Below are positions 2,418-61,700 of a stretch of DNA of 64,000 bases, piece by piece. The DNA lies in the IMG/VR virus record IMGVR_UViG_3300045988_101018, positions 61,635 through 125,634 of that record. One strand, 5' to 3'. The notes under the pieces were generated by a model. It had not been told where the DNA came from, ran no database searches, and saw nothing but the letters and a program-made list of their open reading frames with translations. Each line of letters opens with the position of its first letter. The stretch's first letter is position 1. The DNA is from a virus. Made by a program: the position numbers and the translations under genes.

Positions 2418-2885
2418 ATGTCAACTGCCTATCATGTTGAAACTATCGAGCGCATCACCGAGCAGATGTTGACAGAGGAAGTAATCAGCGATGTAAACAA
2501 GATAATGTGGGACGCAGACACACAGGTTAAAAAGATTAAAACTGATGCTGTTAATGAGATTGAAAAAATTACTCCCGAAGCTGTCAATACAATCAACAAA
2601 ATTGAACAAGATGCTTTAAAGTATATTGCCAGTGAAAAGCGGGATATGATTTTCACTTTGGGTGAGAATGATGCCGATGGTAATCCAGCAGTAAGGGGCA
2701 AACTGCGCAAAATTGATACTGATACTACTGCGATATATAATAAGCTTCTTGATGTCGCTCCCAATACAGAAGCAAAGATACAGCAAAATATAAGAATTAT
2801 GATTGTTAATGATGGTTATGCTATTGAGCTTGTAAACGATGGCAGTGGAAACATTGCCGTTAATTTAGCAAGGAGGTCTGTATAA
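2418..2885 (+). CDS. tail-fibre-associated protein, paralog of preceding ORF (C-terminal ELVNDGSGN motif)
   Basis: 155 aa; RBS AGGAGG; shares VNDGSGN C-terminal motif and repeat character with 1566-2402. Confidence 0.55.
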   Translation: MSTAYHVETIERITEQMLTEEVISDVNKIMWDADTQVKKIKTDAVNEIEKITPEAVNTINKIEQDALKYIASEKRDMIFTLGENDADGNPAVRGKLRKIDTDTTAIYNKLLDVAPNTEAKIQQNIRIMIVNDGYAIELVNDGSGNIAVNLARRSV

Positions 2886-2889
2886 AAAT

Positions 2890-3711
2890 ATGGATGGAAA
2901 TAAGATAATGAAATCCCTTGGCGGTCTTGAGGTGTATGACGAAGCTTGCAGACAGCGCGTTGTAGGTATTACAAGTGCTGGCACTGGTGCTGCATATACT
3001 GCTGCCGTTAAGGCAATTGAAGTTCTTTCTGTTGGTGCTAACTTTGTTATGGTGCCACATGTTACTAGCACTACTACTGCGCCAACATTAAATGTCAATG
3101 GTCTTGGCGCGAAGAATATTAGGATACGTATTTCTAGCTCTCCTAAATCTACTATTCAGCTGCCAAGTGAAGATTTCCTTACAAACGGCAAGCCAGTAAG
3201 ACTTATATATGACGGTCAATATTGGATTGTAGATGATATGGTTCAGCCTAATGCCAATGGCCTATACGGTACTGTTCCTGTGGCTTCTGGTGGCACTGGT
3301 GGCACAACTGTTGAAGAAGCCAGAAACAACTTGGGTCTTGGAAATACAAGCGGTGCTCTGCCTATTGCTAATGGCGGTACTGGATGTACAACACTTGCAG
3401 ATGCTAAGAAGCTATTTAGCGTAGCAGATGATACTGGTGTCATTCCAGTATCGAGTGGCGGCACTGGTGCCAAGACCGCTGCTGATGCTAGAACGAATCT
3501 CGGTATTACTCTTGCCAATATCGGAGCCGCTGCAAGTTCTCATAAGCATGATGCTTCAGATATTACAAGCGGCGCTCTTGCTATCGAGCATGGTGGTACT
3601 GGTGCAACAAATGCGAAAGCTGCCTTGAATAATCTCGGTATCAGATGGGGTAAAGATAAAGCCGAGGATTCTGGTACACCGAATACCATCTATATTCAGT
3701 TGCTTGATTAG
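2890..3711 (+). CDS. tail fibre protein with repeated GGTGxT...A(R/K)xNLG(I/L) motifs
   Basis: 273 aa; at least 5 copies of the GGTG[AC]xT..A..NLG repeat typical of phage tail fibres. Confidence 0.75.
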   Translation: MDGNKIMKSLGGLEVYDEACRQRVVGITSAGTGAAYTAAVKAIEVLSVGANFVMVPHVTSTTTAPTLNVNGLGAKNIRIRISSSPKSTIQLPSEDFLTNGKPVRLIYDGQYWIVDDMVQPNANGLYGTVPVASGGTGGTTVEEARNNLGLGNTSGALPIANGGTGCTTLADAKKLFSVADDTGVIPVSSGGTGAKTAADARTNLGITLANIGAAASSHKHDASDITSGALAIEHGGTGATNAKAALNNLGIRWGKDKAEDSGTPNTIYIQLLD

Positions 3712-3723
3712 GTGGTGATGTAG

Positions 3724-4557
3724 ATGGCTGTTGACAAATATGGTGGCGAAGATACGCACTCTTATAGCTGGGGTACTGGCACAAGCCAAGCATATGTATG
3801 GGCTGAAGTGACAAATAAAGACGATGATACATCTTATGTACATGTAAAAGGATGTGTTTCATCTAAAGGCAATTATAGAATTAGTCAATATGGTGTTCAT
3901 GTTCAATCTGGACAAAATGGGTCTAATCAATGGACTGACACAACCGCCGTATTTGACTATAATAATTGGGTCGGCAATATTGATAGCACATGGGAAGTAG
4001 CCCGTGGAAAAAACGATAAAAGCGTAAATTGTTGGACTAAGTATTGGGGAGAAAAGGTAGGCGGCATAGGCGCTGGTTCTTGGGCTGGCAGTGTATCTGT
4101 AGATGTTACAGTTCCAAAACGTCCATATCATGAGCATGGAACCCCAACTTTAACAACTATAAAGACAACCGCACACTATGGCGAAACCATAACATTGTCT
4201 TTTGCCAAAAGTGAAACACAGGGCAACGCAAACTTTAAGCGCTTTGAATTATATCAAGGAACTACTAAGCTATATAGTGGTACTGATACAAGCTATACAG
4301 TTACACCTTCTGATGTCACTGGTGTAGTAGGTGGTACTGCAACATATACTCTTAAAGAAGTGCATGAGTGGTATGATGAATACCCGTCTAAAGAAACCTC
4401 AATATCTATTAAGGTACAGTCTGGTGTTGTCACTATATATGATGAGAATAGGGTAAAGCACGTTGGTCTTGTCACAATGTATGATGAGCAGCGTGTCAAA
4501 CACTATGTATTGATTACTGCATATGACGAAAACGGCAAGGCTCATAATGTGGTATAA
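3724..4557 (+). CDS. tail fibre / receptor-binding protein (putative)
   Basis: 277 aa; position in fibre operon; C-terminal near-duplicate segments (VTIYDENRVKHVGLVTMYDEQRVKHYVLITAYDENGKAH). Confidence 0.5.
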   Translation: MAVDKYGGEDTHSYSWGTGTSQAYVWAEVTNKDDDTSYVHVKGCVSSKGNYRISQYGVHVQSGQNGSNQWTDTTAVFDYNNWVGNIDSTWEVARGKNDKSVNCWTKYWGEKVGGIGAGSWAGSVSVDVTVPKRPYHEHGTPTLTTIKTTAHYGETITLSFAKSETQGNANFKRFELYQGTTKLYSGTDTSYTVTPSDVTGVVGGTATYTLKEVHEWYDEYPSKETSISIKVQSGVVTIYDENRVKHVGLVTMYDEQRVKHYVLITAYDENGKAHNVV

Positions 4558-10360: not shown

Positions 10361-10378
10361 ATAACGTTAATTATTATA
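10357..10378 (-). promoter_or_regulatory. early motif copy 1 (minus-strand reading TATAATAATTAACGTTATATGC) upstream of dut
   Basis: -10-like TATAAT directly followed by TTAACGTTATATGC, then RBS AAAGAAAGGTGA. Confidence 0.5.
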
Positions 10379-10936
10379 CAGTACAATCTTATTTGTTGCT
10401 AGAGTTTTTTGAACATTTATTACACGCTGATTTGAACTTCCACACCACTTTAAAGATATGTCATTAAGCTCATCAACATATTTACCATCGACAACAACAT
10501 CGCACATAGAAACAATGTTCTTTCGAGCTGTCTTAACTTTAACAGTCTTAAAAAAGTCTAATGGGTTTAAATCATTTAACATAGCTGGCTTAAAGATTTG
10601 TTCCCATGTAAATCCAGTATACAGCCAGATTTTCTTGTCTGGAAACTTGGCTTTAATGTCTTTGATGAGAGAAAGAACATCGTATACATTTTCAGGCTCA
10701 AGCGGCTCTCCACCAAGGATGGTTACTCTGGCAACAAACGACTGCGCAACAAGCTTAAGAAACTCTTCTTTAGTCTGCTTAGTCCATTCTTTGCCACCAG
10801 TAAATCCCCATGTCTCACTGTTAAAACAGTTTTTACAATGGGCGCGGCACCCTTGTACAAAAAGAGAAACGCCGATGCCGCTGCCATTTGAAATATCCAT
10901 CTTGCGAATTAATGCATACCTAATTTTAATCACCAT
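10367..10936 (-). CDS. nrdG: anaerobic ribonucleotide reductase activating protein NrdG (radical SAM)
   Basis: VQGCRAHCKNC = CxxxCxxC cluster at N-terminus; directly downstream of nrdD; true start probably at 10900 (MDISNGSG). Confidence 0.85.
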   Translation of the reverse strand: MVIKIRYALIRKMDISNGSGIGVSLFVQGCRAHCKNCFNSETWGFTGGKEWTKQTKEEFLKLVAQSFVARVTILGGEPLEPENVYDVLSLIKDIKAKFPDKKIWLYTGFTWEQIFKPAMLNDLNPLDFFKTVKVKTARKNIVSMCDVVVDGKYVDELNDISLKWCGSSNQRVINVQKTLATNKIVLYNN

Positions 10937-11045
10937 CTTCCGCTGGCATATCGTCTACATGAAGGACACGCTCTTTAATCTCTTGAGTGCGTCCAGCATT
11001 CCAGAAGTTACTTCCAATGTCCTTACTACCCTCGGTTTCCCGATA
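10926..11045 (-). CDS. nrdD: nrdD exon 2 (C-terminal 39 aa: YRETEGSKDIGSNFWNAGRTQEIKERVLHVDDMPAEDGD)
   Basis: translated by hand; continues the glycyl-radical motif RRTCG|Y and matches NrdD C-terminal NAG...E..RV.H; no start codon of its own. Confidence 0.6.
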   Translation of the reverse strand, partial: YRETEGSKDIGSNFWNAGRTQEIKERVLHVDDMPAEDGD

Positions 11046-11710
11046 TTTATTAGGGGAGTAGACTATACAATCTAATCATTACCAATACGTTAAAGCCCAC
11101 TTATGAAACGACCAGTTTCTTCATCTCGTTTTAAATTACCAAGCGATACTGCATAGCCAACATTTTCTTTTGTGGTACACCACTCTAGATTCTCTGCCCT
11201 ATTGTCATCTCTTTGGCAATTTTTATGATTAACCACATTTTTATTATCTGGATTCGGAATAAAGTATTTCGCAACTAACCTATGAACATATAAGTCTTTG
11301 CGTTTCCCAGTTGACATCTGCCTACAACATATTCTCATATATCCATTTTTTGTTGGCCTTGGATTTATTTCGTATAATTCTGTGGTTTTGTCGTTCCTTC
11401 TTCTATTTCCCTTACCTAAATTACAATATACCTTTCCGTCATCAGAAATAAAGTATCCATCAAAATCTTCTATTGGCTTCATCATGCGCATCACCTCATT
11501 AGAGGTAATGATTAGTCGGTATTATAGTCGTTGAAGGTTTCTCCTATTTAGGAGACTTCCCTGCGTTTGATTACCCAATTCTTAACGATGTTACCATACC
11601 AAGTCCGTTACTACTCGCCGCAATTATATTACTATAATTGTTTGGTTGTTAAGACTCTAAGGGCTTCCCCGCAATTTAACCGATTTAACGTGGACTACAT
11701 TTTACTTCAA
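11046..11710 (-). mobile_element. intron-like intervening sequence in nrdD (probable group I intron) carrying an HNH endonuclease ORF
   Basis: ~665 nt between nrdD exon 1 (ends RRTCG) and exon 2 (starts YRETEG); boundaries approximate, ribozyme core not verified. Confidence 0.5.
11090..11494 (-). CDS. HNH homing endonuclease (intron-encoded)
   Basis: 134 aa; VNHKNCQRDDNRAENLEWCTTKEN HNH motif. Confidence 0.8.
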   Translation of the reverse strand: MMRMMKPIEDFDGYFISDDGKVYCNLGKGNRRRNDKTTELYEINPRPTKNGYMRICCRQMSTGKRKDLYVHRLVAKYFIPNPDNKNVVNHKNCQRDDNRAENLEWCTTKENVGYAVSLGNLKRDEETGRFISGL

Positions 11711-13891
11711 TCCACATGTTCTGCGTGCCACGCTCATTTTATCATGGTCGCGGTTGCCACAGTTGGGGCATTCCCAAACAAGCTCGCCAGTATCCTTATC
11801 CTCTACAATAAGGATCTCCTTGTCCCAACCGCACACCATACAATAATCGCTCTTTGTATTCAGCTCAGCATACATAATATTGTCATAGATAAACTGAATA
11901 ATCTGAATCACTGCATCGATATTGTTTGTTAGATTTGGCACCTCAACATAGCTAATGGCACCGCCCTGAGAAAGCTTCTGGAACTTAGACTCGATAGCAA
12001 GCTTGCTAAACGCATCGATGTGTTCAGTAACATTAACATGATAAGAGTTGGTAATATAATCCTTATCAGTGATACCCTCGATTACACCAAAGCGCTTCTT
12101 TAAACACTTTGCAAATTTGTATGTGGTAGATTCAATTGGGCTACCGTATGGACTGTAATCAATGTTCTCTGCTTCCTTCCATTGATTGCACTTATCGGTA
12201 AGAGCCTGCATTACCTCAAGTCCAAACTTCTCACCAATATCACCATCTGTATGGCTATGACCAGTCATATACTTTACACACTCATAAAGCCCAGCGTATC
12301 CAAGTGAAATTGTTGAATATCCATTGTAAAGAAGCTTGTCAATCTTTTCACCCTTGTCCAAGCGAGCAAAAGCGCCATGCTGCCAAAGGATAGGTGCTAC
12401 ATCAGATGGAGTACCCATGAGCCTATTATGACGTGCCTGTAGCGCCTTGTGACAAAGTTCAGTGCGCTCATCAAAAAGCTTCCAGAACTTATCAAAGTCG
12501 CCGCCAGACGATAGTGCAACATCAGGAAGGTTGATTGTCACAACACCTTGATTTAGGCGACCATAATACTTCGGCTTGCCATCATAGTTCTTAGCCTTTG
12601 CAATGTTATCATATCCATTACCACTACGGTCTGGGGTAAGGAACGAGCGGCACCCCATACAAGGATAACAATCCCCATTTCCAACCTCTTCGCCCTTAGA
12701 TAGCTTATATTCCTTCATCTTCTTTTCAGAAATATAATCAGGCACCATACGCTTTGCGGTACACTTGGCAGCAAGCTTAGTGAGATAGAAATACTTATCG
12801 CCCTCATGGATATTATCATCCTCAAGGACATAAAGCAGCTTCGGGAATGCAGGCGTTACCCATACGCCCTTCTCATTCTTAACGCCCTGAATGCGCTGAT
12901 TAAGAACCTCTTCAATAACTAGAGCAAGGTCGTTCTTAGTTTGCTCATCTTTTGCTTCGTTAAGATACATGTTCACAGAAAGGAATGGAGCCTGTCCATT
13001 GGTTGTCATAAGTGTTACAACTTGATACTGAATAGTCTGAACGCCGCGCTTAATCTCGTCCTTCACCATAGACTCGACAATATCATTGTAATTGGCAATC
13101 TCGTCATCTGTCTTAGGCTCATGTCCGACAAACTCAACATATGTATCCATCGCCTGCTTCTTAATCTTCTGTCGACTCACGTCAACAAAAGGAGCAAGAT
13201 GTGTAAGGCTAATTGTCTGTCCACCATACTGACTTGATGCAACCTGAGCAATAATCTGAGTGGCGATATTGCAAGCGGTGGCAAAGCTATGCGGCTTCTC
13301 AATCATAACATTAGAGATAACAGTGCCATTCTGAAGCATGTCTTCTAGGTTAATTAGGCAGCAATTACTGAGAGCATTCTGCCCAAAATAATCAATGTCA
13401 TGAAAATGAATGATGCCAGCTTCATGAGCTTCAACAACATCCTCTGGTAGCAAAAAGCGCTTGGAGATATCTTCACTTACAACGCCAGCCATATAATCTC
13501 GTTGAGTGGTGACAAGACTGGCATTCTTATTTGAGTTTTCGTTATTCCAATAATCGCTGTCTCCGCTTAGCAGCTCCATAATTGTTTCATCTGTTGTATT
13601 GACCTCACGAATAATCTTACGCTTATAACGGTACTCAACGTAATGAGAAGCCACATCTTTGCGCGAGGTTGACATAAGCTTGTTCACAACCATGTCTTGA
13701 ATATCCTCAACGGACATTTTCTCTTTCTTGATATTTGCGATTTCATTTGAAATCTTATTTGCAATTTTATTTGCGTCCTCGGTAACATCGCCATCGACTT
13801 CAATAAATGCTTTCTTAATAGCGTTTGAAATCTTGTTCTTGTCAAAAGCGTCTTCTCGTCCATTTCTCTTAATAACAAACATCATACGCAT
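11711..13891 (-). CDS. nrdD: anaerobic ribonucleoside-triphosphate reductase NrdD, exon 1 (ATP-cone + catalytic barrel, ends at glycyl-radical RRTCG)
   Basis: 727 aa; N-terminal ATP-cone (VIKRNGREDAFDKNKI), CxxC zinc ribbon CPNCGN, RRTCG glycyl radical motif then an in-frame stop 2 codons later. Confidence 0.9.
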
Positions 13892-46420: not shown

Positions 46421-46506
46421 TGGCGGAGACATTGGGAATCGAACCCAAACTAGATTGCTCTAGGACACCTTAGCAGGGTGCTGCGCTACCTTTACGCCAT
46501 GTCTCC
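46421..46506 (-). tRNA. tRNA-Ser (anticodon GCU), type II with long variable arm
   Basis: cloverleaf folded by hand: acceptor GGAGACA/TGTCTCC, anticodon loop CUGCUAA, T-loop GGTTCGATTCC, CCA encoded. Confidence 0.8.
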
Positions 46507-46596
46507 TTCGTTGCGGGGTGCGTTGCCAACTACACCACATGTCTTTTGTAAAATAACATAATAATAAGCACATGGCTACTTATTTTCCGTCTATAC

Positions 46597-46680
46597 TGAG
46601 ACACGTCTGGACTCGAACCAGAGACAGTTGAGCCGTTATCATCCATGAGAATCTGGCTTTATCGTGATTATATCCACGCC
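46597..46680 (-). ncRNA. tRNA-like 3' fragment (T-arm TCTGG-TTCGAGT-CCAGA plus acceptor-like strand) with no matching 5' acceptor; preceded by extended -10 promoter TTGACATTGTATAAT
   Basis: T-arm consensus present but no cloverleaf could be completed; possible degenerate tRNA or small RNA. Confidence 0.3.
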
Positions 46681-46720
46681 CCGATTATTATACAATGTCA
46701 ACTATGACAAGAAAAAATCA

Positions 46721-46796
46721 TGGAGCCGATGACAGGAATCGAACCTGCAACAGACTGATTACAAATCAGTTACTCTACCAATTGAGTCACATCGGC
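46721..46796 (-). tRNA. tRNA-Thr (anticodon UGU)
   Basis: acceptor GCCGATG/CATCGGC, anticodon loop TTTGTAA, T-loop GGTTCGATTCC, CCA encoded. Confidence 0.8.
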
Positions 46797-46815
46797 AATT
46801 GTGCAATTGATTGTG

Positions 46816-46889
46816 TGCGCTATGTAGGATTCGAACCTACGACCTACAGATTAGAAGTCTGTTACTCTATCCAGCTGAGTTAATAGCGC
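46816..46889 (-). tRNA. tRNA-Arg (anticodon UCU)
   Basis: acceptor GCGCTAT/ATAGCGC, anticodon loop CTTCTAA, T-loop GGTTCGAATCC. Confidence 0.8.
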
Positions 46890-46940
46890 ACACAATCAAT
46901 TGTTGTATATAAAAGATATTATATCATATCTTAATATATC

Positions 46941-47025
46941 TGGTAGGGAAGAAGGGATTCGAACCCTCACGCTCTATGAGCAAGAGATTTTAAGTCTCCG
47001 ATGTCTGCCATTCCATCACTTCCCC
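46941..47025 (-). tRNA. tRNA-Leu (anticodon UAA), type II
   Basis: acceptor GGGGAAG/CTTCCCT, anticodon loop CTTAAAA, long variable arm, CCA encoded. Confidence 0.8.
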
Positions 47026-47031
47026 GAGTTT

Positions 47032-47106
47032 TGGTATCGGCTACGGGAATCGAACCCGTGTTTCCACCTTGAAAGGGTGATGTCCTAACCGTTAGACGAA
47101 GCCGAC
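47032..47106 (-). tRNA. tRNA-Glu (anticodon UUC)
   Basis: acceptor GTCGGCT/AGCCGAT, anticodon loop CTTTCAA, T-loop GGTTCGATTCC, CCA encoded. Confidence 0.8.
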
Positions 47107-47109
47107 ATT

Positions 47110-47195
47110 TGGTGCCGCATCTAGGTAACGCTCCTAGCCAGTCATAGACATTGGATTTACAGTCCAACCCTCGTCTTTAAAGGATTACTGCGGCA
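47110..47195 (-). tRNA. tRNA-Tyr (anticodon GUA), type II, non-canonical T-loop (AGCGTTA)
   Basis: perfect 7-bp acceptor TGCCGCA/TGCGGCA, anticodon loop CTGTAAA, CCA encoded; D- and T-arms atypical. Confidence 0.6.
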
Positions 47196-47197
47196 AT

Positions 47198-47274
47198 TGG
47201 TGGACACAGTAGGATTTGAACCTACGACCTTATGCGTGTAAAGCATCTGCGCTAACCAGCTGCGCCATGCGTCC
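47198..47274 (-). tRNA. tRNA-Val (anticodon UAC)
   Basis: acceptor GGACGCA/TGTGTCC, anticodon loop TTTACAC, T-loop GGTTCAAATCC, CCA encoded. Confidence 0.8.
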
Positions 47275-47275
47275 G

Positions 47276-47351
47276 TGGTGGGGTCGGTGGGGGTCGAACC
47301 CACGACCTTGGGATTAAAAGTCCCCTGCTCTTCCAACTGAGCTACAACCCC
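47276..47351 (-). tRNA. tRNA-Lys (anticodon UUU)
   Basis: acceptor GGGGTTG/CGACCCC, anticodon loop CTTTTAA, T-loop GGTTCGACCCC, CCA encoded. Confidence 0.8.
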
Positions 47352-47355
47352 GTTA

Positions 47356-47430
47356 TGGTGGGAGATGAGTGAGTCGAACACTCTTCAATCCGTTATAAGC
47401 AGACTGCCCTAACCGTTGTGCTAATCTCCC
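47356..47430 (-). tRNA. tRNA-Ile-like with anticodon UAU (AUA decoder) - unusual
   Basis: acceptor GGGAGAT/ATCTCCC, anticodon stem GTCTG/CGGAT with loop CTTATAA, T-arm GAGTG-TTCGACT-CACTC, CCA encoded. Confidence 0.6.
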
Positions 47431-47461
47431 ATAGCCATTACAATAGACGGTAATATATCGT

Positions 47462-47547
47462 TGGCAGTGACAAGATTTGAACTTGTATACAGGAGCTACC
47501 TGTTTTGCCCATTAAAGCATAGCGTATACCGATTTCGCCACACCGCC
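47462..47547 (-). tRNA. type II tRNA-like gene (Leu/Ser/Tyr-class architecture) with unresolved anticodon arm containing UUUAAUGG (possible 8-nt loop)
   Basis: acceptor GGCGGTG/CACTGCC, T-arm ACAAG-TTCAAAT-CTTGT, variable arm ACAGG-TAGCT-CCTGT; no standard 5-bp/7-nt anticodon stem-loop could be drawn. Confidence 0.5.
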
Positions 47548-47560
47548 AAGTCACATTACC

Positions 47561-48700
47561 GTCTATGGAATATATACTTTTCAAGCATGGTCTATATGCT
47601 CTTAGATCGATTCTGGCAATAAATCTGTTCATACCATACAACAACACGCAATGATAATATATACTCCATAGACGGTGGTAGCTTACTAAAGTCCTCACCA
47701 ACTACCAGAGGGGTCACTTATTTTAAATACCGTCCGCGCTGGCAGACCTTCCAACGCTACCGATTTTACGCAACGGTGTACGCTTAACAGTCCGCTTCCT
47801 CCGTTAAGACAAGGGGTAACATTACGCCGTTACCATGCGCCCAAGACTTGTCAGGTAGCTATCTCCATCGTAAACCTTGGGACTAAGCGTTAACGGAAAA
47901 TACGTTTGAGTTAAATTGGAGCAACCATGAAACCAAAACAGAAAGGAGCCATTGTATTTTCCGTCTGCGGAATCGTACCGCACCATCTGTATCAGCAAAG
48001 CAACCAAAAACCTAATACAGAATCGAACCTCGCTTTGTCGGTCAAGCAAACCAACGCGAAAGATTGTCTCAGGCCTTCGCCTTACCTTCATAAAACGTAG
48101 TGGTAATTCGGTCACATAGGAAATGGAGCTGAGACACAAGGAGCGACCTCGTATCTTTCCATCCCAACTTGCGTCAATCTATGGCTGGATTGGCTACCAA
48201 CAACTTTCACCCACCATTCAGCATATTAATCTTCTATACTATCCAAATTTGGGCTACTCGTACTCACGTCTGGTCTTATAGCTGATTACCAGCATCAATT
48301 GGACAACTATCTTGTGGCACTCCAAGCGATTGGCATAGCTGCCACACTATCCTCTACTTGGTTCAATGAAGTGCGTACCTCATATCTATTGCGATAGCGA
48401 CCAGTTAGCGATACCATTTTCTTGCGTTTCATCACAGCACCGTGTCTGCCCTCAGTTGAGATTTTCCATCTCTCCTGCCCTTCTAAAGATGTCAGTTACC
48501 TGCATCAGGCAAAGCCTACCTATAGGGTATCCTCTATAGTGGAACTCTTTGAACACGTCCATGACCCAATGGAATTTGGAATACACATGGTTGAAACAAT
48601 CCTTCGCGTTGATTTCTCAACGCTGATACTTTATGCAAATATCAAGGTGCAACTGGAAACTTCCGTTTCTCTGTGTCAGATATTATAGCATCTAACTTTA
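47561..48700 (-). ncRNA. ~1.1-kb ORF-poor, GC-richer region adjacent to tRNA array: candidate large structured ncRNA (ROOL/GOLLD-like?); strand not determined
   Basis: only short random-looking ORFs; 18-bp near-perfect inverted repeat 47569-47587/47650-47668; composition differs from flanks; context typical of phage large ncRNAs. Confidence 0.35.
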
Positions 48701-61399: not shown

Positions 61400-61700
61400 T
61401 TTTCCAGCCTATGATTTTCCAGCGCGTCAAATCTCCACAAATGCTCCACGGTTTCTCCATATTCCAGTCTAGGATTTTCTCCATGAAACCTCTACAAAGA
61501 TTCCATAATTCCTCCATCAAAGTTCCACGAAACTTCCATCAAAGCTCCATAGCTTTTCCATCAGATGCACATAAAATCTCCATCAAAGTTCCATAGATTC
61601 TCCACATTTTCTCCATAATTATGGATCCTCCACAATGTCTACATATTTTCTCCACAGCTTCTCCATGAAAAAATTACAGAATCTCCATAACTTTTTCCAT
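61400..61700. repeat. phased array of TCCA(T/C) motifs at 11-bp (and 22-bp) spacing over ~24 helical turns
   Basis: TCCA start positions 61434,61445,61456,61502,61513,61524,61535,61546,61557,61579,61590,61601,61612,61651,61662,61684,61696 measured from sequence. Confidence 0.6.

Follow-up and report, generated by a model that had tools for sequence, protein, structure and literature searches.

Group I introns that carry homing endonucleases are found in the ribonucleotide reductase (RNR) genes of several phages, including nrdB and nrdD of T4, nrdE of Twort, and nrdE/F of SPbeta. In a survey of split phage RNR genes, nrdD was the gene most frequently split, and the nrdE introns of Twort were found to be inserted at codons for highly conserved catalytic residues (PMC3653736). 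Here, we describe an insert of 689 nucleotides (nt) in the nrdD gene of an uncultured human-gut phage, whose nearest cultured relatives by NrdD infect Enterocloster. The gene lies in a 64,000-nt stretch of IMG/VR virus record IMGVR_UViG_3300045988_101018 (positions 61,635 to 125,634 of the record). This stretch is called the window throughout, and positions are counted from its first letter. We regard a mobile, self-splicing group I intron as the right reading of the insert, with a probability of roughly 92%. It would join the mobile group I introns of phage RNR genes that encode an HNH homing endonuclease, a known kind of element of which it is a new and precisely mapped member. Among the papers covered, literature searches found no description of an intron at the nrdD glycyl-radical codon.

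The T4 nrdD intron (sunY), with its endonuclease I-TevII, resembles the window's intron in being variably present among relatives and in being followed by nrdG. It differs in position, as its junction falls within residues 167-181 of 605 whereas that of the window's intron is the equivalent of Gly580/Tyr581, and in its endonuclease, I-TevII being a GIY-YIG and the window's an HNH protein. The open reading frame (ORF) of the T4 intron is located near the intron's 3' end and not in P8. The T4 nrdD intron is thus a different element. The DNA-polymerase introns of SPO1 and SP82 (I-HmuI and I-HmuII) and the introns of Twort and K (nrdE with I-TwoI, lysK, pol) have endonucleases of the same HNH_3 family as the window's. 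However, their host genes and sites differ, and the window's endonuclease is only 131 amino acids (aa) long and lacks the C-terminal domain of I-HmuI. With the Twort nrdE introns the window's intron shares insertion at conserved catalytic codons (PMC3653736). Among the gut 'Jug' jumbo phages, 95 of 104 genomes are reported to have an nrdD broken up by group I introns, with metatranscriptomic evidence of splicing (Sci Adv 2026, PMC12880540). These introns also split the nrdD of gut phages and commonly carry HNH endonucleases, but they belong to jumbo phages of Bacteroides/Phocaeicola and there are several short ones (~206 nt) per gene (PMC12880540); the likeness is one of description only.

The case for an intron in the window is built on RNA structure, splice-site geometry, restoration of the reading frame, covariation, and three allelic states, all of which were computed here. 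The NrdD ORF on the minus strand (13891..11702, 729 codons) ends in ...SVARRTCGLK and a stop. Exon 1 matches Pfam NRDD with 590 bits (profile positions 1-541 of 562), ATP-cone with 77 bits, and Gly_radical with 55 bits, and the last 21 positions of the NRDD profile, starting right after the radical glycine, are missing from the unspliced ORF. On the same strand there follow ~215 nt without an ORF, an HNH ORF, ~70 nt of non-coding DNA, and an open frame to 10926 that has neither a start codon nor a ribosome-binding site and begins within a codon. When the C-terminal 114 aa are compared with NRDD, the unspliced ORF scores 68.3 bits and stops at 541/562, whereas the protein joined at the junction mapped here scores 101 bits and is complete to 562/562, a gain of 33 bits. 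That the downstream segment completes the profile in this way goes beyond chance. The ligated exons encode a 758-aa NrdD that ends in ...RRTCG-Y-IGSNFWNAGRTQEIKERVLHVDDMPAEDGD. Its join region reads ...RRTCGYIGSNFWNAGRTQEIKERVLHV..., that is ...RRTCG-Y-IGSNFWNAG..., and aligns without a gap across the junction with solved NrdD structures (9D3X, ...KRTCGYLGNP...; T4 1H78, ...RRTCAYLGNP...).

Group I chemistry demands that the 5' exon end in a U paired with a G and that the intron end in a G. The insertion point lies between bases 1 and 2 of the codon for the Tyr just after the radical glycine: the 5' exon ends with T 11710, exon 2 begins with A 11020, and the join reads GGA TAC ATT, with the Tyr codon split into T and AC. 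The terminal G 11021 is followed by AC ATT GGA AGT. The predicted spliced junction, ...ACATGTGGAT joined to ACATTGGAAG... (GGAU to ACAUU), can be set beside the intronless alleles L018 and L020, which read ...TGCGGAT followed by ACCTGGGG... around the site. Changes in the P1 guide are matched by changes in the exon in L007 (A-U to G-C) and in the two cultured phages introduced below, CB457P1 (L004) and iF6. P10 equivalents can be recognized by eye in L003 (CCGAUAU/AUAUCGG) and in iF6 (CCUAAA/UUUAGG). Judged likewise by eye, the P1 and P10 guides follow the exon sequence of each host, for example AGUGUGGGU/GCUCACACU in iF6.

The RNA itself carries a group I core. Rfam RF00028 (Intron_gpI) matches the window with 37.2 bits (E 1.3e-7), covering positions 47-158 of the model from P3 to the P3 3' strand, and it is the only Rfam family matched in the nrdD insert region and the only intron match in the whole window. 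The match is partial because the endonuclease ORF interrupts the model. A 265-nt twin of the intron without an ORF (L010) is matched end to end (1-253/253) with 38.6 bits (E 1.7e-8). When P1 and P3 are imposed and P7 is reserved, the fold runs P1, P3, P4, P5, P5a/b, P6, [P7], P3', P8, [P7'], P9, which is the canonical order, with the P5a/b hairpin capped by GUAA and P9 by a GAAA tetraloop. An unconstrained minimum-energy fold (z = -1.98) recovers P4-P6, P7 enclosing P8, and P9. An Rfam scan of the whole loci L001, L003, and L004 gave no match at E <= 0.01, which is taken as an effect of filtering and search size and not as absence, as RF00028 does match when given the intron region alone. No further copies of the conserved modules of the intron, and no other introns at Rfam E <= 0.01, were found in the window.

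Two other kinds of insert, a group II intron and an intein, were considered and rejected. There is no Rfam group II match and no reverse transcriptase, and the insert does not keep the frame and opens with a stop codon. Within the intron, in P5a/P5b and upstream of the HNH gene, TTAACA-18-TATAAT (11652..11623, minus strand) comes close to the sigma-70-type promoter consensus (11/12). The count of sigma-70-like promoter matches is not above shuffle expectation, and the same sequence is present in the ORF-less twin.

Introns at exactly the same site supply the covariation. A scan of IMG/VR with a pattern in which the intron 3' end runs into exon 2 gave 11 loci, and in each of them nrdD is cut at exactly this nucleotide. 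GenBank adds two, in Enterococcus phage iF6 (MT909815; Herelleviridae, Schiekvirus) and Enterocloster phage CB457P1 (OP172753). These two have the identical insertion point (GG. T before AY), the same 3' module, and homologous P1, P3, P7, and P9 with compensatory changes. The iF6 intron (L001, MT909815.1, locus 2927-4060) differs in that P8 holds a 250-aa 'DNA endonuclease' ORF with a LAGLIDADG-like motif, not an HNH, and that of CB457P1 (L004, OP172753.1, locus 2738-3115) is an ORF-less intron of 293 nt. In GenBank, NrdD ends in ...KRQCG in iF6 and in ...RRTCGLTL in CB457P1, and intron and exon 2 are unannotated in both. Six distinct same-site introns were aligned and 31 pairs of P1, P3, P4, P7, and P9 counted. 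Standard pairing is found in 96.8% of cells, as against 31-42% after a shift of the 3' partners by 1-3 columns. Two-sided changes occur in 11 pairs (4 of 5 in P3, 3 of 7 in P7, 3 of 4 in the P9 hairpin), and none of 500 shuffles reached the observed covariation score. For example, P3 is found as UCGGU/ACCGA, UCGAU/AUCGA, ACGGA/UCCGU, CCAUC/GGUGG, and CCGUG/CACGG, P7 as GACUAUA/UAUAGUC, GAACAUA/UAUGUUC (L003), and GACUGUA/UACAGUC (L007), and the P9 hairpin changes from CGG/CCG to UAG/CUA in CB457P1. The covariation is supporting evidence for the group I helices, short of proof, because the set is small and its sequences are related.

In comparison with the ORF-less twin, the window's intron has a cassette of ~424 nt in the terminal loop of P8, and P8 itself is extended from 6 base pairs (bp; CUAAUC/GAUUAG) to 12 bp (CUAAUCAUUACC/GGUAAUGAUUAG). 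The cassette holds the HNH gene. The mechanical ORF call begins at GTG 11494 and gives 134 aa; the start is more plausibly ATG 11485, which lies 5 nt past a Shine-Dalgarno sequence GAGGTGA. The protein matches HNH_3 with 40.7 bits (cutoff 24.8, E 1.9e-10), the N-terminal DNA-binding motif NUMOD4 weakly (20.7 bits, short of the cutoff of 23.4; E 5e-4), the PHROG HNH endonuclease families 59 (E 2.3e-35) and 959 (E 3.7e-29), and I-HmuI, the intron-encoded nicking endonuclease of Bacillus phage SPO1 (PDB 1U3E; E 1.2e-9). In the alignment with 1U3E, the catalytic His is kept (vvNHKn versus vvDHKd), as is the Asn in eNLEW/tNLRW, and the length of 131 aa fits the short PHROG 959 family (profile length 138).

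Intron ORFs of T4 are under translational restraint. The Shine-Dalgarno sequence of the window's endonuclease gene is buried in a hairpin, and it is a reasonable inference from this analogy that the hairpin limits translation of the endonuclease. Two single-nucleotide differences between the window and L013 fall in the hairpin and are not compensatory: one changes the loop and the other turns a U-A pair into U·G, so that pairing is retained in L013 by a one-sided change only.

The state of the site was scored in the 80 closest NrdD loci of IMG/VR. The gene runs uninterrupted through CGY[IL]G in 72 of them, including five (L018-L022) with 97-99% amino-acid identity to the window's NrdD. Three loci (L024, L026, L027) have an ORF-less 265-nt intron, two (L025, L030) have the intron plus an HNH gene, two (L023, L078) have a different intron 1 nt upstream, and one (L056) could not be scored. 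Near-identical phage contigs are thus found in three states, without the intron, with the same intron lacking an ORF, and with intron and ORF, as is typical of homing. The intron core of the window is 100% identical to that of the ORF-less L010, L014, and L016, whereas nrdD around the intron is 91-93% identical, rising to 97-100% over the 300 nt upstream of the insertion. An intron that is far better conserved than its host gene, together with a tract of elevated identity beside it, is consistent with horizontal spread by homing with co-conversion.

Much of this had been anticipated in a first-pass annotation of the DNA. The NrdD ORF that stops two codons after RRTCG, the start-less minus-strand frame that completes its C-terminus, and an intact HNH ORF at 11090-11494 were all found as it had described them. 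Its proposal of a homing intron, self-splicing and probably of group I, with an HNH gene in the glycyl-radical motif is supported by the Rfam match, P1, P10, the terminal guanosine (omegaG), and the covariation of the core; a covariance-model search, which it had suggested, is the source of that Rfam match. It had allowed that NrdD homologues might genuinely end at RRTCG. The 72 intronless loci continue past this point, and the corrected join equals them.

Several observations weigh against the intron reading. Neither RF00028 score (37.2 and 38.6 bits) reaches the curated gathering score of 50, and P2 and P7.1/P7.2 were not found in the intron folds. The covariation rests on a small set of six mutually related sequences. 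As to the endonuclease, the intron ORF has an Asn just before the catalytic His where I-HmuI has Asp74, which we take to be a metal ligand, and the C-terminal helix-turn-helix DNA-binding domain of I-HmuI is absent, the alignment ending at residue 107/174. Because of this replacement and of the missing domain, endonuclease activity of the 131-aa ORF is likely but not certain.

The low Rfam score is also what speaks for the best of the alternatives, namely that the insert is the decayed relic of an intron no longer able to splice, with nrdD a truncated pseudogene and the phage relying on the reductase of its host; the GenBank records of related phages, which annotate nrdD as truncated, can be read in the same way. 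We consider this very unlikely. All core helices are intact and identical to copies in other contigs, exon 2 is intact, fits the family profile, and overlaps the start of nrdG, and the variation of exon 2 in related introns is synonymous at 10 of 10 sites. A dead intron would abolish NrdD, yet the layout recurs in many independent contigs and in the viable cultured phages iF6 and CB457P1.

Alternatively, a free-standing HNH gene could have split nrdD into two separately translated polypeptides that reassemble, as in nrdA/mobE of Aeromonas phage Aeh1. RNR genes split without an intron do exist (PMC3653736), and in T4 the HNH gene mobC stands on its own between nrdG and nrdD. In the window, however, exon 2 begins in mid-codon with nothing to start its translation, and the non-coding flanks of the HNH gene form a covarying group I core. 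Such a split also cannot explain the ORF-less inserts at the same site, and it is still less probable than a dead relic.

Splicing at the junction of the first-pass annotation, with exon 2 starting YRETEGSKDIGS..., is the least probable of the three alternatives, even though the frame is open from there and also gives G-Y: no G precedes that junction, it adds 8 residues found in none of the 72 intronless homologues, it lowers the Pfam NRDD score by 10 bits (91.1 bits for the junction that keeps YRETEGSKD), the 24 nt that it would retain make up P9, an element also conserved where introns interrupt unrelated genes, and related introns end in AAGG right before AY in 14 of 14 cases. In the peptide quoted by that annotation, the nrdD C-terminal segment stands, and the first nine residues, YRETEGSKD, fall outside the spliced protein. 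The 3' junction had been set 24 nt (8 codons) too far upstream; the stretch in question belongs to P9 at the intron's 3' end, and the GAC codon of the D consists of the terminal intron G and the first two bases of exon 2. That a terminal G could not be placed was true of the earlier junction, and is solved by G 11021, 24 nt downstream.

Returning to the self-splicing intron, whose features are listed in Table 1, we infer splicing catalysis, the activity of the endonuclease, and its target. The transcript would fold into the group I core, in which GUCCACGU and the exon end AUGUGGAU form P1 and place a U·G pair where cleavage occurs. The first attack, by an exogenous guanosine that occupies P7, would fall just after U 11710. 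P10 (AAUGU with ACAUU) would then position exon 2, and the free 3'-OH of exon 1 would attack after G 11021. Ligation would yield the full-length NrdD and allow coupled translation of the overlapping nrdG. When phages with and without the intron infect the same cell, the I-HmuI-like HNH protein would be expected to nick or cut the intronless nrdD near the site, and recombinational repair would copy the intron together with flanking exon sequence.

Table 1. Features of the split nrdD locus, in transcription order (window coordinates).
Feature	Position	Strand	Basis
nrdD exon 1: ATP-cone and NRDD domain to ...RRTCG, plus first base T of the Tyr codon	11710..13891	-	ORF list, Pfam
P1 exon strand AUGUGGAU; U 11710 is the U·G wobble at the 5' splice site	11710..11717	-	pairs with GUCCACGU
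Predicted group I intron, 689 nt	11021..11709	-	splice-site deduction, Rfam RF00028, identical ORF-less core in L010/L014/L016, covariation
In-frame TAA closing the unspliced frame, 8 nt inside the intron, P1 loop	11702..11704	-	ORF list, sequence
P10 guide AAUGU, directly 5' of the guide sequence; complement of ACAUU (11020..11016), exon-2 bases 1-5	11697..11701	-	read from sequence
Internal guide sequence, P1 3' strand GUCCACGU	11688..11695	-	pairing with exon strand AUGUGGAU
Core 5' half: P3 5' strand 11683..11679; P4-P5-P5a/b-P6 11673..11536; P7 5' strand GACUAUA 11529..11523; P3 3' strand ACCGA 11520..11516	11515..11686	-	Rfam, folds, covariation
P8 5' strand CUAAUCAUUACC	11504..11515	-	perfect 12-bp complement of 11083..11072
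Hairpin CAUUACCUC-UAAU-GAGGUGAUG burying the endonuclease Shine-Dalgarno sequence GAGGUGA	11489..11510	-	local fold, -13 kcal/mol
Putative homing endonuclease gene (131 aa with ATG 11485 as start), within the P8 loop	11090..11485	-	Pfam HNH_3, NUMOD4, PHROG, I-HmuI
P8 3' strand GGUAAUGAUUAG	11072..11083	-	complement of 11515..11504
P7 3' strand UAUAGUC, guanosine-binding helix	11061..11067	-	pairs with 11529..11523; compensatory variants
P9 region with UCGG-GAAA-CCGA tetraloop hairpin (11043..11032), and tail to the base before the terminal G	11022..11058	-	folds, identity to other intron ends, covariation
Terminal intron guanosine (omegaG)	11021..11021	-	sole G keeping the frame and giving Tyr (T+AC)
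nrdD exon 2, 95 nt: AC, then codons for IGSNFWNAGRTQEIKERVLHVDDMPAEDGD and stop	10926..11020	-	completes Pfam NRDD; aligns with solved NrdD structures
nrdG activase; ATG overlaps the final codons of exon 2 (ATGGTGATTAA)	10367..10936	-	Pfam Fer4_12 E 7.7e-43 and Radical_SAM

The ribozyme has relatives well beyond nrdD. In 201 phage records, counterparts of its last ~50 nt (91-98% identity) lie where exons begin or end in split genes, among them those for terminase and polymerase. For the P3-P7 core, identity is ~70% with introns of Staphylococcus endolysin genes, SPO1-like phages of Bacillus, PBS1, Lak megaphages, and a crAss-like phage. Introns related through the core or the 3' module split endolysin, terminase, polymerase, and RNR genes of myophages of Staphylococcus, Bacillus, Listeria, and Enterococcus. 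By sequence, the window's ribozyme belongs to a family that is widespread in Firmicutes myophages.

Further arrangements are found at the same place in nrdD. In L023 (IMGVR_UViG_3300045988_107970, 3019-4005) and L078, a second intron of ~977 nt lies exactly between the Gly (GGT) and Tyr (TAC) codons and has a different, 248-aa HNH-type ORF in its 5' half. Its 3' module is closely similar to that of the window's intron, being identical from UAAAUAUCGGGAAACCGAGGGUA, while the preceding segment and the tail differ. The exons of L023 are 93-100% identical to those of the window per bin, mostly 99-100%; therefore, one phage lineage has two different introns at essentially one site. An ORF-less intron of 275 nt interrupts the same nrdD nucleotide in L003 (MT835556.1, 1747-2019) and in L008, L011, L015, and L017. 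Only 10 nt (AUCAUUAUUG) separate its P3 and P7 3' strands, so that it has no room for a P8 helix. Among these five contigs the intron is ~99% identical and the exons differ by ~12%, and the 10 variable sites of exon 2 are those already mentioned as all synonymous. Judged from these comparisons, the 275-nt introns may be either P8-less group I ribozymes that still splice or very recent products of decay.

Contigs with the P8-less intron also have an HNH gene that stands free between nrdD and nrdG (L003, ~2175-2546; L011, ~11152-11523; 150-521 nt after the start of exon 2). With the intron HNH of the window it shares 48-50% identity, and among INPHARED phages it is the top match of that protein (H121). 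A free-standing HNH gene next to a P8-less intron resembles 'collaborative homing', and also T4 mobC between nrdG and nrdD. In L003, L008, L011, and L015, the gene shares an in-frame TAG at codon 27 of the printed frame (ADGHI*TTLA, where * is the stop), which begins about 8-9 codons upstream of the probable start; the ~115 codons beyond the TAG stay open. The conserved TAG could be a stop that is read through or recoded, or else an inactivating mutation that these contigs have in common. No tRNA with a CUA anticodon is included in the tRNA array of the window, described next.

Elsewhere in the window, a full-length ROOL RNA (RF03087, 288 bits; 48052-48614, minus strand) adjoins an array of nine tRNA genes (46421-47548, minus strand). 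The array includes Ser-GCU, Thr-UGU, Arg-UCU, Leu-UAA, Glu-UUC, Val-UAC, Lys-UUU, and Ile-UAU, as well as an 89-nt tRNA-like gene to which no anticodon was assigned (47460-47548). Between the ROOL RNA and the array there is a weak RAGATH-36-like match (47813-47985; 39.6 bits against a gathering score of 70).

For annotation, the consequence is that nrdD in this phage group, and in iF6 and CB457P1, is listed as truncated with the C-terminal 30 residues missing, while the gene would be intact after splicing. For intron biology, the locus adds the Tyr codon beside the radical glycine to the conserved codons that are targets of phage introns in genes of nucleotide metabolism. No new mechanism is revealed. 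It is a tentative suggestion, at odds well short of even, that the Gly-Tyr codon boundary of nrdD is a homing hot spot that captures stages in the formation and decay of mobile introns, with an HNH gene in P8 (the window), a LAGLIDADG-like gene in P8 (iF6), no gene, or a 275-nt P8-less intron and a free-standing HNH gene downstream. Should the P8-less form be able to splice, it would be an example from nature of a group I ribozyme without a helix that is usually counted among the conserved elements of the core. At this one site there are alleles that are empty, that hold an intron with or without an endonuclease gene, or that have a free-standing endonuclease gene nearby; this natural series could serve in studies of how introns gain and lose endonuclease genes.

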